A stretch of DNA of 64,000 nucleotides from NCBI GenBank assembly GCA_964552555.1, contig CAZKGK010000001.1, positions 78,851 through 142,850 of the forward strand, read 5' to 3'. The notes beneath the pieces are model-generated. The model had not been told where the DNA came from. It did not search any database and saw only the letters and a program-made list of their open reading frames with translations. This document shows, one piece after another, positions 21,825 to 52,435 of this stretch. Position 1 is the stretch's first letter; each line of letters begins with the position of its first letter. Both the position numbers and the translations under genes were made by a program. The stretch is from an uncultured Candidatus Saccharibacteria bacterium. GTDB lineage: Bacteria; Patescibacteriota; Saccharimonadia; Saccharimonadales; UBA4665.

Positions 21825-22478
21825 CTAGAACCATTGCACAACACCACCATGATGTGAACAAGTGCCCCTGCGTGACTGGCTAAAGCTATATGTACCATCC
21901 GCGCAGTGGGCTGTTGCGCCAGCTGGAGCACTAGGACTGACCTCGGGACTGCAGACCGTATTACCGACAGAGTTTACGTAACTGCCATTTGTGCAGCTTG
22001 GAGTTGGAGCAGGGACGGGGGTAGGAACAGGTGCGGGTGGCACAACAACAGGATTAGGAGTGGGGACAGGCATCACTTGGGATGTCGCATTTGGATTACC
22101 GGCAAGGAAGCTAACTTTATCGTTGGCTACAGTATAGAAACGTACGTAATTTATCGGGCGCTGTTGCGGTCTATGGTTCGTGGTCTTCACTTCTCTTGCA
22201 AAAGATACCTTACCACTGCCCGTAAGCACTACTCGATGGAAGGTTGCCCAATTCTTACTATTAACCGTTGCATCGGTAGGGCTCTTGTCGTTCACATAGA
22301 GCACTAGCTTCGTGCCAGATGCGTCCTTCACCACAACGTCAAACGTATTATTGCCCTTAGCATAACCAGCAGCAATGCCAATACCTACTGGGCTCGCAGA
22401 GACTTGCGCTACAGACAAAAGAGTGATGAAGGCAAAAACTGAAAGTATGCTGAGTATTTTCTTAATCATAGTTTGCAT
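21825..22478 (-). CDS. Secreted DUF3761 domain-containing protein
   Basis: Signal peptide, Pro-rich linker, and C-terminal GATAHCADGTYSFSQSRRGTCSHHGGVVQW. Confidence 0.88.
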   Translation of the reverse strand: MQTMIKKILSILSVFAFITLLSVAQVSASPVGIGIAAGYAKGNNTFDVVVKDASGTKLVLYVNDKSPTDATVNSKNWATFHRVVLTGSGKVSFAREVKTTNHRPQQRPINYVRFYTVANDKVSFLAGNPNATSQVMPVPTPNPVVVPPAPVPTPVPAPTPSCTNGSYVNSVGNTVCSPEVSPSAPAGATAHCADGTYSFSQSRRGTCSHHGGVVQWF

Positions 22479-22597
22479 TTAATACTCTTGTTGCAAAATA
22501 TGCAACAAAAATGAATAAAACATTAAAACCAATTCGCTTGTGCCAGGAGACGGATGATGTTGACTATATCAAATTTAAAGTAGATAGTAGATATACT

Positions 22598-24700
22598 ATG
22601 GCATCTGGAGAAATTCCTCTTCACTCTCCACTCGACAGAGAAGACATTCTGCCGCCTGGTGTAGATTGTATTGTCGAGGCGCCTGAAGTATTCAAACAGA
22701 TAGAGCAAGGTGAGCAAAGGCAATGGTTCTTGAATAAGGCCGCACGGGTATGCGGAGACTGCGCCTTACAAGGAGATAATTGTCCCAAAGAAGCAATCAA
22801 CTTTATGGGCGCCGAAATTGCCGTGTTTGATGGAATGGTTGTTAGGTCGGAGGCTGAAGCCGTCGAGGCAGCGCGCACCCAAGAGCCAACTTTCGTATTC
22901 CCCATGGGACAGCTGCCGAATGATGAAAAGGCGGCGCTGCGGTTTATTCGCGTACATAACCGCGCAGGCACTTTAGAGGCAGCGCCAGGAAAAGCAGGGA
23001 GAACAGTTGCGGATATATTCATCGGTCGAGCAATGGCAAATCTGACAGATACTGCTCCCTCCCTAGACTCCTCTGAGCTTGCACACCTATGCCATCAGCT
23101 ATACGGCATGATCACTAACGAGGACGTAACCGACGGAGTCCCCGTAACCCTCTTTTCGACACTATGTGAACAGGTGGCGCACGATGCTGCAAGGCTAAAG
23201 GCCGCGGGGCATGTCAACCCTGTTGACCTAGCCCTACGCCACCGCCCGGAAATATTTGAAGAACTCGGCATGCCCCCCGCAGAAAAACTAGAGGCACTAC
23301 GACAAACGCTCCGAGCCAACCCTAATATGCTCAATAGGTCTCCTCCATCCAATTTCGAAGATTTTATAGCAGCCCTCGAACCCAAAGTGCCGTTCACAGA
23401 CACGCAACGATTGGCGCTTCGACGCTTAAGTATAATGATCCGTTACAGGTGGCCACAGGATCTCAGGATAGAAGCAGAGCAACAGCTCTTCAACGAATTA
23501 GCACCGACACTACTCGCAGATATTACCGCCGTTGAGTATCTTGGTGTTCTTGGACCCCGCTTTGCGATCTCGTATAGTCCCGCCTACCTAGACGGACTTC
23601 TGGCTGAATTTATGCCTGTCAAAGAAATTACAAAGAAAGACCTCCTTTGGGCGTGCGAGAAAATGGGACAAACCACTCCACGAGAAGCATTGTACGCATT
23701 CATGATCACCCTAGACACACTGCGGCAAGGGGAATGGCCACAACCCATGAAAGACTTGAAGCCACTTAAGACTGCGGCACGTTCGTCCAATCCTGTTGCC
23801 GCCATGGAAACCATGCAATCAAGCCTAAAGCGGTTCAAGGAAAAATATCCAAATCATCGCTTTTTGAAAAAAGCCGACTTTTATCGTCTATGCTTCGAAA
23901 CGCCCGGCTCGGCTATGAATCGGGCGGCTACCTTTATTCGTACCTGTGAAGAGGTCGCTCCCGATTTTGCAGACGATCCAGACTTGACCGACGTAGGTCT
24001 TCGTAGGATTGCCATAAGGCATATAGCATCTCCTAAAATAGTTCGTAGCCGAATCGCCGAGTTCAAGGCTAGCGTGAAACGAGTACGGAATATGTATAGC
24101 GACCCTGAGGGGCTCGACGAAGAATCCCTGATTATCATCGCGAATGCACAACCATTTAACGTAGAAGGATCTGCCAAAACGTGGCTCTTCAGATATAAGA
24201 CTCTCACGAATAGATTTGACGGCATAGATACGTGGATACTAAAAAATTGTCTAGCGCACAATGTACATGTCAAAGAGCGGGAATTAATAACTCGTTTACA
24301 TTTGTATAACAGCTTTTTTCGCTCAAGCCTCAACATTGTGGCCTCCCGGAATGGTAAAGACATAGATGATTCAAGAGATAAACGACTTGAGGACAAAAAA
24401 TCTCTAGGTATAAATCCGGCACAGGTCCTGGAGGAGAAGGAGGCTGCCGTAGCGCAACTGAAACATATTTTCACTTTAGTACAAACTCTAGGGCCAGAAG
24501 AAAGGATGGCGGTAATGGAAGCGTATCAGATAGACTGGTACACCAAAGAAGCCTCCACTATGACCACGGAAGAGCTACAAGTTCATTTCGATACAGAAAA
24601 TCTAAAAGTATATGTCGATACGCATATCATGCCCCGACTGCAACAGGCAGTCGCCAGCCAGCAGCAAAGCAGCTCTGCTTGCGTACCGCCAAATAGCTAG
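22598..24700 (+). CDS. Large hypothetical protein: N-terminal WhiB-like 4-Cys cluster, central helical repeats, C-terminal sigma70-region-4-like segment
   Basis: ORF 22511-24700; probable start ATG 22598. Contains DCIVEAPEVF...KAARVCGDC...NC...AVFDG. Confidence 0.6.
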   Translation: MASGEIPLHSPLDREDILPPGVDCIVEAPEVFKQIEQGEQRQWFLNKAARVCGDCALQGDNCPKEAINFMGAEIAVFDGMVVRSEAEAVEAARTQEPTFVFPMGQLPNDEKAALRFIRVHNRAGTLEAAPGKAGRTVADIFIGRAMANLTDTAPSLDSSELAHLCHQLYGMITNEDVTDGVPVTLFSTLCEQVAHDAARLKAAGHVNPVDLALRHRPEIFEELGMPPAEKLEALRQTLRANPNMLNRSPPSNFEDFIAALEPKVPFTDTQRLALRRLSIMIRYRWPQDLRIEAEQQLFNELAPTLLADITAVEYLGVLGPRFAISYSPAYLDGLLAEFMPVKEITKKDLLWACEKMGQTTPREALYAFMITLDTLRQGEWPQPMKDLKPLKTAARSSNPVAAMETMQSSLKRFKEKYPNHRFLKKADFYRLCFETPGSAMNRAATFIRTCEEVAPDFADDPDLTDVGLRRIAIRHIASPKIVRSRIAEFKASVKRVRNMYSDPEGLDEESLIIIANAQPFNVEGSAKTWLFRYKTLTNRFDGIDTWILKNCLAHNVHVKERELITRLHLYNSFFRSSLNIVASRNGKDIDDSRDKRLEDKKSLGINPAQVLEEKEAAVAQLKHIFTLVQTLGPEERMAVMEAYQIDWYTKEASTMTTEELQVHFDTENLKVYVDTHIMPRLQQAVASQQQSSSACVPPNS

Positions 24701-24714
24701 CATACTATGGCTTT

Positions 24715-25326
24715 ATGAATACCTACGATTATCTCATCGTATTATGTCCAGGCATCGTCAATGATAAAGGGCAGTTTGACGAAATCGACTCGAACGGTCT
24801 CTATCTTGGCGGGCAAGTACGGATGCAGGCTGCTGCGGCACTCCATACAGATCCCACAGTTGAAATCGGTAAGTATATCATCGTAGGTGGGGGTATGGAA
24901 AAGACGAACATAACAAAAAGGCAAGAGAAAGTCGATTGCATGTGCAGCTTCCTCAAGAATAAGGGCGTGCCAAAAGAAACTATTGTTCGTGTCGTTTCTG
25001 GTGCAGATACATCTGGCAATTTTCGAGCACTATGGAAAGTGTTCAGGTCCGAGCTGCAACAAAAACGTATCGGCATCCTGACTAATTTCTACCACATGCC
25101 GCGTGTAATGCGTATTGCCCAGGATGCACAGTTTGACTGGCAGGTGTCGTTTGTTCCTATCTGCGCCGAAGCAATACGTCCGGCTGAACCTCCGCTGGAT
25201 CACATACCCGGATTGAGTGCCCGGATTGCTACAGAAATCAAAGGGCTGGGGGACTGGGAACGAGGAGAATACAGAGACCAGCATAAGCCAGTAATCGAAT
25301 GGGAAGGTGAGCTACTCCCGGACTAA
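24715..25326 (+). CDS. YdcF/DUF218 (SanA-like) family protein
   Basis: IIVGGG, ADTSGNF and IGILTNFYHMPRV match the DUF218 T-x-x-Y-H-x-x-R motif. Confidence 0.8.
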   Translation: MNTYDYLIVLCPGIVNDKGQFDEIDSNGLYLGGQVRMQAAAALHTDPTVEIGKYIIVGGGMEKTNITKRQEKVDCMCSFLKNKGVPKETIVRVVSGADTSGNFRALWKVFRSELQQKRIGILTNFYHMPRVMRIAQDAQFDWQVSFVPICAEAIRPAEPPLDHIPGLSARIATEIKGLGDWERGEYRDQHKPVIEWEGELLPD

Positions 25327-51385: not shown

Positions 51386-52435
51386 ATGACAGAAGCTGGA
51401 ACAGGGCAAACACCCATACTCAACACTGAAACATTCGTCCAAGATATCTTGAGCAATATTGAGCGTGAGCGTGAGCGTGAAATCGTTGCACGACGCTTTG
51501 GGCTCTTTGATCGCCGCGAAACTCTAGAACAGATCGGTGAGCTATTAGGCATCACCCGCGAGCGCGTACGCCAGTTAGAAAAATCAGTTATTGCACGTTT
51601 TAAAACCATGGCAGAGCAGGGTCAACTTCCGCATGTCAAGGAAGTTGAAACCAGCTTGACACGACAACTACAGCAAATGGGTGATGCTGCACGCATCAGT
51701 AATTTGACTGCCGTAGTGACTGCCGAGAACTCCAAAACCGACCAGTCTCGTATCGTGTTCCTTGCAACCTTGTGCCCGCACTTGAGTGTTATTGATGAAG
51801 ATGATCACTTTTACCAAGCAGTCGGCATCACAAGCACTCGTGACGTCGCCGGCATGAAAGCCGACATTGCTAAGCTAACCGAAGCTATTAAAAAGGCTGG
51901 GGAGCCCATAGCTATCGCCGATGCTTCCAAAGCTGCAGACCTAGAAGACGCCCGACAAGCCGCAGCGCTTGCTAGCATCTCTAAGAGCCTTGCGACATTA
52001 AACGGTCGCTGGGGCCTTGTTAAATGGCCAATGGTCAACCCTAAAAACATCCGCGACAAGATCTATGTCATCCTCAAAGAAAATGGCCACCACATGCACT
52101 TCAATGAAATTGCCGGTGCCATTAAGGACAGTGACTTTAAGCGCAAGGATGTTACCACACAGGCAATCCACAATGAACTCATCAAGGACAAACGCTTCGT
52201 ACTTATTGGCCGTGGTATCTACGCCCTAAAAGAGTGGGGTTACAGTAAAGGTACTGTTGCCGATATCATTTCAAAGGTGCTCAAAGAAGCAGGGGAGCCC
52301 CTACACCGAGACGAGATTGTTAAGCGCGTGCTAAAAAGTCGCTTCGTAAAAGAAACAACTATCCTCCTGAATCTTCAGGGGAAGACACAGTTCAAACGCG
52401 TCGCCAAAGCTACCTACGAGCTCGACGAAGCTTAA
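51386..52435 (+). CDS. Sigma70 region-4 domain protein with C-terminal winged HTH (RpoE-delta/HARE-HTH-like)
   Basis: REREIVARRFGL...TLEQIGELLGITRERVRQLE; C-terminal MHFNEIA...QAIHNELIKDKRFVLIGRGIYALKEWG. Confidence 0.85.
   Translation: MTEAGTGQTPILNTETFVQDILSNIEREREREIVARRFGLFDRRETLEQIGELLGITRERVRQLEKSVIARFKTMAEQGQLPHVKEVETSLTRQLQQMGDAARISNLTAVVTAENSKTDQSRIVFLATLCPHLSVIDEDDHFYQAVGITSTRDVAGMKADIAKLTEAIKKAGEPIAIADASKAADLEDARQAAALASISKSLATLNGRWGLVKWPMVNPKNIRDKIYVILKENGHHMHFNEIAGAIKDSDFKRKDVTTQAIHNELIKDKRFVLIGRGIYALKEWGYSKGTVADIISKVLKEAGEPLHRDEIVKRVLKSRFVKETTILLNLQGKTQFKRVAKATYELDEA

Follow-up and report, generated by a model that had tools for sequence, protein, structure and literature searches.

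A divergent WhiB-like domain and a sigma region-4-like tail in one protein of a soil Saccharimonadales bacterium

WhiB-like (Wbl) proteins are defined by four cysteines and a universally conserved G[V/I]WGG motif within 81–139 residues, and they have been described as confined to Actinobacteria and actinophages (Bush 2018, PMC6282962). Wbl domains carry a [4Fe-4S] cluster, on which their binding to region 4 of the primary sigma factor depends; a fusion of a Wbl domain to an extracytoplasmic function (ECF) sigma factor, WblP, has also been described (Bush 2018, PMC6282962). Our literature searches yielded no paper that deals with Wbl proteins of Saccharibacteria or Patescibacteria. Here we describe P0001, a protein of a soil Saccharimonadales bacterium with a 1.4-Mb genome, in which a Wbl-like head and a tail resembling region 4 of sigma-70 appear to occupy opposite ends of one chain. 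P0001 is the product of the open reading frame at 22511–24700 (+) of a 64,000-nucleotide stretch of contig CAZKGK010000001.1, hereafter the window; residue numbers are counted from 22511.

As in the known Wbl–sigma fusions exemplified by WblP, a Wbl-type domain and sigma-derived sequence are combined in a single chain, and two relatives of P0001, P0010 and L045, include an entire sigma-70. P0001 differs from these fusions in belonging to a different phylum, in carrying a degenerate region-4-like tail alone, with no sigma region 2, and in having about 500 helical residues, including 43-residue repeats, between its head and its tail. The original prediction for this gene, made from the sequence and its translations, had recognised both ends of the protein and overlooked the repeat-containing helical middle.

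The Wbl-like head and the region-4-like tail

The translation of 22511–24700 contains every motif on which the original prediction was built, at both ends of the protein. The head displays the pattern C53-x27-C81-x2-C84-x6-C91, together with PEVF (residues 58–61), KAARVC (76–81) and AVFDG (104–108). It shares with Wbl proteins (Mycobacterium tuberculosis WhiB1 and WhiB3, Streptomyces venezuelae WhiB; PDB 6ONO, 8CWR, 8DY9; PF02467) the four-cysteine pattern C-Xn-C-X2-C-X5(6)-C, an acidic residue and 'LF' following Cys1, an alanine four residues before Cys2 and a glycine turn after Cys4. In contrast to Wbl proteins of 81–139 residues, known from Actinobacteria, the head opens a 700-residue protein of a member of the Patescibacteria, lacks the basic C-terminal DNA-binding helix and has AVFDG in place of G[V/I]WGG. 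The deviations in spacing and turn motif that had been pointed out from the start are real: six residues precede the last cysteine of P0001 (CGDCALQGDNC), where its closest homologue, P0002, and nearly all other relatives have five, and the family consensus at the turn reads V-[IV]-[AG]-G, with a single well-conserved glycine.

Conservation of the cysteines in homologues had been proposed as a check on the Wbl assignment, and it was borne out. Across 20 aligned N-termini of the family, Cys2 to Cys4 never vary, and at least 90% retain Cys1 and the phenylalanine of '(E/D)xLF'; the alanine before Cys2 and the turn glycine that follows Cys4 are likewise conserved. When a profile built from these N-termini was run against 177,635 distinct PDB sequences, it matched six of them at E<10, every one a Wbl protein (WhiB3, E 9.8e-4; WhiB1, 0.04; Streptomyces WhiB, 0.08), with the four family cysteines in register with those of WhiB3 and WhiB1. 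Using hhalign, with reversed and column-shuffled profiles as controls, the family head aligned to four canonical WhiB sequences of the same class at a probability of 84.5% (P 6.9e-6), with all four cysteines and the GG turn in register and 'VIaGe' opposite 'GIWGG'; the controls reached a probability of at most 1.6%.

Curated models capture the head less readily. P0001 gave no match to PF02467 at E<=10, placing its head below the Pfam gathering threshold of 23.6 bits, and the model found no match across the whole P0001 genome. Among the relatives, Pfam Whib is the sub-threshold top match in P0002, P0007, P0011 and L058 (E 6e-4 to 0.07; scores of 14–20.7 bits, under the same threshold). The family hidden Markov model (HMM), in turn, pulls out genuine stand-alone WhiB proteins from genomes of the same GTDB family (L059, L060 and L061), which the Pfam Whib model scores at 54–90 bits. 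These, and the sigma–WhiB protein L103, which the family HMM also retrieves, have a canonical Wbl domain at 54–90 bits, without the repeats and tail of the family. Because the cysteines are kept but the X6 spacing, the AVFDG turn, the missing basic C-terminal helix and the sub-Pfam score all depart from the norm, the profile comparisons indicate that the head is a strongly diverged, non-canonical Wbl homologue, in line with what had been called from the letters. Its four conserved cysteines would be the expected ligands of a [4Fe-4S] cluster. The head is followed by a conserved linear motif, which in relatives takes the form x-F-x-F/D-x5-P-x-D/E-P-x2-AL.

At the other end, between approximately 24416 and 24670, P0001 reads PAQVLEEKE...LVQTLGPEERMAVMEAYQIDW...MTTEELQVHF...HIMPRLQ; the same stretch may also be given as PAQVLEEKE...LGPEERMAVMEAYQIDW...TTEELQVHF...HIMPRLQ. 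An AlphaFold2 (AF2) model of the C-terminal module, comprising the last 305 residues and built from a 16-sequence family alignment, has a predicted local distance difference test (pLDDT) score of 81 and consists of nine helices, alternately short and long, a disordered linker and then four helices whose lengths suit a region-4 domain (module residues 212–234, 238–247, 262–268 and 274–298). With hhalign, a tail profile of 21 family sequences aligned to 15 diverse true region-4 sequences from these genomes at a probability of 82.1% (P 1e-5), over 61 columns across regions 4.1 and 4.2, with controls at a probability of at most 0.2%. This agrees with the earlier call of a sigma region-4-like tail. 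That call had named regions 3.2–4, and the profile comparison backs a tail of this 3.2/4-like kind; the acidic linker occupies a position analogous to region 3.2, and the alignment to full-length sigma factors passes through it. Homology reaching sigma region 3 was considered and rejected, as hhalign gave a probability of 56% against full-length sigma factors and 0.1% once region 4 was removed. No Pfam match to Sigma70_r2 was found in P0001.

Single-profile searches also led to sigma factors, with weak scores. A 10-sequence tail profile run against the PDB had mostly sigma factors as its best matches (SigA1, E 0.031; SigA, 0.064; an ECF sigma factor, 0.15), and the 21-sequence profile, although weaker, still had a sigma factor at the top (E 0.28). 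The P0001 tail itself has no match to the Pfam sigma models and lies below their gathering threshold; out of 10 family tails, one matches Sigma70_r4 (E 0.0053) and one matches r4_2 (E 0.07).

Compared with sigma-70 region 4 (PF04545/PF08281) and helix-turn-helix domains of the LuxR/GerE type, the tail has four predicted helices that follow a flexible acidic linker, and it shares the 'DPE...L..L..EER.AV..Y' pattern of region 4.1, a helix with 'T.EEL' and a final helix that closes with 'PKLR'; 'L..L..EER.AV..Y' (4.1) and '...I.PKLR' (end of 4.2) are the patterns retained. It differs in that helices 2 and 3 are joined by a longer loop, in having N-L-K-V-Y-V-D-T at the R/E/R/Q positions that contact DNA, and in its acidic character. 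The net charge is −7 in P0001 and, with one exception, −2 to −11 in family tails, against approximately 0 to +5 in true region 4. Where RpoD has 'TRERIRQIEAKAL', the tail has 'TENLKVYVDTHIM', so that the basic and polar side chains with which the 4.2 recognition helix touches the −35 element are lost. The comparisons indicate that the tail is a degenerate, non-canonical homologue of sigma-70 region 4. Since it is acidic and the −35-reading residues are replaced, we infer that it serves as a protein-binding surface and is no −35 reader.

Helical middle, family and links to sigma factors

Relatives of the body (residues 148–446) outside the family were not detected. The three tandem repeats that follow it, with the consensus PDDPDLTDEVLRRIARHSPKSPEAAIERYLERYAELREEFADDP, align with one another at hhalign probabilities of 94–96.5% and are modelled by AF2 with pLDDT values of about 87–98 as alternating short and long helices. 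The repeat HMM finds one to five copies per relative. Against Pfam the repeat has no relative, and against the PDB it gave a single marginal match (UPF0102, E 0.016) of no evident relevance. The possibility that the repeats represent sigma region 2 was rejected, since hhalign against sigma factors without region 4 yielded probabilities of 0.1–0.2%. Many long members of the family have a second, internal copy of the tail. This internal sigma-4-like copy is present in P0002 and the long members and absent from the P0001 body; in P0002 it lies within a 143-residue segment containing 'LSEGEREALLAAYSVDELVYG' that is missing from P0001. In the long members, a unit consisting of helical body and sigma-4-like domain appears to have been duplicated.

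The family is small and scattered. When 1.84 billion representatives were searched exhaustively with phmmer, just seven proteins emerged at E<1e-3, one of which, the low-complexity repeat protein P0006, was excluded from the family. P0002, from a soil metagenome contig, is the only close homologue (64% identity); word-indexed searches with the P0001 sequence, the alignment or the C-terminal region returned P0002 alone, a related-locus search with P0001 as query found nothing, and phmmer of whole P0001 against the PDB gave noise only. In profile searches of whole genomes, family matches occurred in 22 of 310 genomes, representing 11 of 102 genera, of the same GTDB family, and in 3 of the 401 genomes of a class-wide sample. 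P0001 has about 25 distant relatives. None of 22 other species of its genus has a P0001 orthologue, and the other members found within the genus are two paralogues of 425 residues in one genome (G013) and proteins of 982 and 662 residues in two others (G003 and G017). The family is patchy and fast-evolving in Saccharimonadales. One member, P0007, lies in a core chromosomal context, near mraZ-rsmH.

Domain architectures tie the family to sigma factors in several ways. In two species of genus g57, a Wbl-like head and the family body are fused to a complete sigma-70: P0010 (1373 residues; L011:4312-8433, genome G398) and a 1343-residue protein at L045:4073-8104 (genome G464), the sigma parts of which contain Sigma70_r1_2, r2 (E 1e-16), r3 and r4. 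The bodies of both fusions also hold an internal sigma-4-like copy, and each of the two genomes has a separate RpoD. In genome G442, a 494-residue sigma-like gene with weak Sigma70_r3 and clear region 4 (L010:10240-11724) lies upstream of, and overlaps the start of, a family gene (L010:7596-10295), with which it probably forms an operon. A further member (L050:4060-6822, genome G463) has two Wbl domains, one divergent at the N-terminus and one canonical at residues 819–886 (Whib, E 4.8e-18).

Other members have replaced or dispensed with the Wbl head. In L044, a true Sigma70_r4 (E 3.9e-14) stands where that head would be, P0003 has three GntR winged helices in its place, and P0004 and L047 are stand-alone 300-residue proteins of repeats plus tail. 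The heads of the family, whether Wbl-like, triple GntR or true sigma-4, thus appear to be exchangeable. Because P0003, L044, P0004 and L047 carry the tail without a Wbl head, these architectures indicate that the sigma-4-like tail is not an obligate partner of the Wbl domain; about 18 of the 21 Wbl-headed members retain at least one sigma-4-like domain. Long proteins of the class with a canonical Wbl domain (L103–L107) were considered as members and rejected. One of them, a 669-residue protein (L103:3315-5324, genome G335), places sigma region 4 (residues 464–527) directly ahead of a canonical Wbl domain (residues 537–608) and on this evidence is an independent sigma-4–Wbl fusion outside the P0001 family.

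Canonical Whib domains above the Pfam threshold are present in 175 of the 401 class genomes and in 107 of 187 genera. The P0001 genome encodes its own RpoD and two ECF-like sigma factors. Second RpoD-like sigma factors were noted in L092 (G006, same genus) and L094 (G008), as open frames of 454 and 737 residues; their region-4 tails, 'LRHPSRSQGLRDYL' and 'LCHPSPSSGLVDY', have the actinobacterial-type motif, and the RpoD of the P0001 genome reads 'LRKHKDARKLHDYIK' at the corresponding tail. This motif includes SigA R515, which is required for WhiB3 and WhiB7 binding (Bush 2018, PMC6282962). Elsewhere in the window (51386–52435, +), a 349-residue protein combines an N-terminal Sigma70_r4 (E 5.6e-11) with a C-terminal HARE-HTH domain and no sigma region 2; orthologues of about 350–370 residues occur in the same-genus genomes searched.

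Gene, promoter and surroundings

The P0001 gene is real, as attested by a frame of 729 codons with native composition (its GC of 0.49 matches that of the remaining window), a homologue of 64% identity in which the promoter is conserved, about 25 distant relatives and a confident C-terminal AF2 model. The true start is probably the ATG at 22598, as originally proposed, because a conserved promoter ends just 5' of this codon and P0002 begins at the equivalent MDTGEIP. The promoter sits within the first 29 codons of the longest frame, and only 32 nucleotides separate the ATG at 22511 from the start of the divergent upstream gene at 22478. The promoter block TGTTGACTATATCAAATTTAAAGTAGATAGTA (window 22558–22590) is identical at 31 of 33 nucleotides in the P0002 locus (L003), making it better conserved between the two loci than the coding sequence, and similarity is gone upstream of the −35 element. 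As the promoter ends 9 nucleotides before ATG 22598, the mRNA is most likely leaderless or near-leaderless. The block also contains an imperfect dyad (ACTAT...ATAGT) flanking an AT-rich centre, which may be an operator for autoregulation. Coordinates of all features are collected in Table 1.

Table 1 Features of the P0001 gene in the window, with canonical WhiB genes of the class for reference
Feature	Position	Strand	Residues	Basis or remark
Sigma-70-type promoter TTGACT-17-GATAGT	22560..22588	+		Consensus scan; end 9-10 nt 5' of ATG 22598
Coding sequence, most likely	22598..24700	+	700 residues from Met30 of the longest frame	Stop included
Divergent Wbl-like four-Cys domain	22652..22864	+	48-118	Profile searches, hhalign
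Codon of putative ligand Cys53	22667-22669	+	53	
Codon of putative ligand Cys81	22751-22753	+	81	
Codon of putative ligand Cys84	22760-22762	+	84	
Codon of putative ligand Cys91	22781-22783	+	91	
Conserved post-Wbl linear motif EPTFVFPMGQLPNDEKAALRFIR	22883..22951	+	125-147	Alignments, N-terminal segments
Helical body	22952..23848	+	148-446	No Pfam match
Three tandem helical-hairpin repeats of ~43 residues	23849..24226	+	447-490, 488-531, 531-572	
Acidic disordered linker	24338..24412	+	610-634	AF2 pLDDT <50 (module residues 186-210)
Sigma-70 region-4-like four-helix domain	24416..24676	+	636-722	AF2, hhalign, charge count
Canonical WhiB examples	L059:3655-3966, L060:3375-3689, L061:2945-3430			Pfam Whib

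The neighbourhood of the gene is not conserved, and P0002 is flanked by different genes. A DUF218 gene (window 24715–25326, +) begins 15 nucleotides past the P0001 stop codon and has no counterpart in the 22 other species of the genus. Near these two genes are a ricin-GH16 gene and a helicase-DUF559 gene. Because P0001 and the adjoining DUF218 gene are both unique within the genus, the stretch that they form appears to be a strain-specific variable region.

Possible roles and significance

Our overall reading, which we regard as somewhat probable, is that P0001 is a cytoplasmic Fe-S-gated regulator acting on the cell's own sigma factors or RNA polymerase (RNAP). Like the Wbl proteins of Actinobacteria, the Wbl-like head would bind region 4 of one of the cell's own sigma factors, either RpoD or one of the two ECF-like proteins, for as long as its cluster is intact. 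The acidic tail would either serve the head as a cis decoy or be a competitor for, or a handle on, a partner of region 4 such as the RNAP beta-flap. An endogenous role is favoured because canonical WhiB occurs in so many genomes of the class, because the genome has its own RpoD and ECF-like sigma factors, and because relatives are fused to sigma-70.

Several observations weigh against a regulator of this kind. Scans of P0001, whole and by its two ends, against Pfam, NCBIfam and PHROG models returned no match at E<=10. The last cysteine spacing of the head departs from the C-X2-C-X5-C of Wbl proteins, its AVFDG is a degenerate turn motif, and its AF2 model, in which helices flank each cysteine and a hairpin forms at the turn, scores poorly (pLDDT 62.7), as is common when an apo Fe-S domain is modelled from a shallow alignment. 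Foldseek with this low-confidence model returned no Wbl match in the PDB; against BFVD, phage WhiB proteins make up 6 of the top 7 matches, at weak E-values of 1.5–4.9 and TM-scores of 0.37–0.54. The tail's PDB matches are likewise weak (E 0.03–0.3) and span region 4.1 alone, and for the whole 305-residue module Foldseek found nothing significant in the PDB (best match BurrH, E 0.31), although about 30 of its top 50 weak matches are sigmaA chains of RNAP holoenzymes (E>=0.4). For the head, structural modelling contributes little to the assignment. In addition, several relatives have the tail but no Wbl head, and no sigma gene adjoins P0001, such adjacency being seen in 1 of about 20 other loci.

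Occurrence of repeats and tail without a Wbl head (P0003, P0004, L044, L047, L054 and L056), together with acidic tails (−2 to −11) whose DNA-reading residues are replaced and long members with two sigma-4-like copies, would also suit a sigma-4 mimic or anti-sigma-like competitor. Here, the body and acidic tail would be the essential part: by imitating region 4, the tail would compete with genuine sigma factors for one of its partners, whether the RNAP beta-flap tip, an activator or free Wbl proteins, and the head would do no more than set when or where this happens. We consider this rather unlikely, as the homology between tail and sigma-4 is based on one profile–profile comparison with a probability of 82%, and the roughly 18 of 21 Wbl-headed members that keep the tail suggest that both ends may still cooperate. 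The lack of any curated-model match for P0001, non-significant Foldseek results for both models and the degenerate GVWGG could instead mean that the resemblance is superficial, with the cysteines forming a zinc or other structural metal site and the tail a generic helical bundle in a lineage-specific helical-repeat protein whose function is a different one. Such a coincidence seems improbable, given two independent profile–profile matches with clean shuffled controls, a PDB search that yields Wbl proteins alone, and domain swaps and fusions that all involve transcription-factor modules.

Cultured Saccharibacteria are epibionts of Actinobacteria, a lifestyle that would accommodate an inter-bacterial effector delivered into the actinobacterial host, the head of which captures region 4 of host SigA or the tail of which soaks up host Wbl proteins. 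The gene's strain specificity, with an orthologue in 0 of 22 same-genus species, its variable region with a DUF218 neighbour likewise unique in the genus, and the patchy, fast-evolving family are all compatible with this proposal. Neither a signal peptide nor a neighbouring gene linked to secretion was seen at P0001, however; its composition is native, P0007 sits in a core chromosomal context, relatives are fused to a complete sigma-70 of the lineage's own type, and the frequency of canonical WhiB in the class points to an endogenous Wbl–sigma system, so that an effector appears to us a poor prospect. A variant in which the exchangeable heads form a diversifying arsenal for hijacking transcription in an actinobacterial host is very doubtful. 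Less exotic, though still new, would be a single-chain Wbl:sigma-4 switch, in which the cis-decoy tail is freed when the state of the cluster changes. As canonical WhiB is native and common in the class and relatives are fused to sigma-70 of the lineage type, the Wbl–sigma link need not imply mimicry of such a host.

A cytoplasmic regulator of the cell's own transcription remains our preferred reading. Wbl–sigma fusions as such are already known from WblP. New in this family, as judged from its sequences, are a Wbl domain too diverged for Pfam, a body of uncatalogued 43-residue repeats, a degenerate region-4 tail and exchangeable heads; its repeat and its interchangeable heads mark it out as a protein family outside the coverage of Pfam, NCBIfam and PHROGs. 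Because Wbl-like and region-4-like domains share a chain in a Patescibacterium, and relatives are fused to whole sigma factors, the family provides natural 'Rosetta-stone' evidence for a Wbl–sigma-4 partnership outside Actinobacteria that has been rebuilt in several ways. With two small domains suited to expression in E. coli, it is also a tractable object for learning how Wbl domains recognise region 4 without GVWGG, and it indicates that transcription control in ultra-small epibionts is more elaborate than their genome size suggests.

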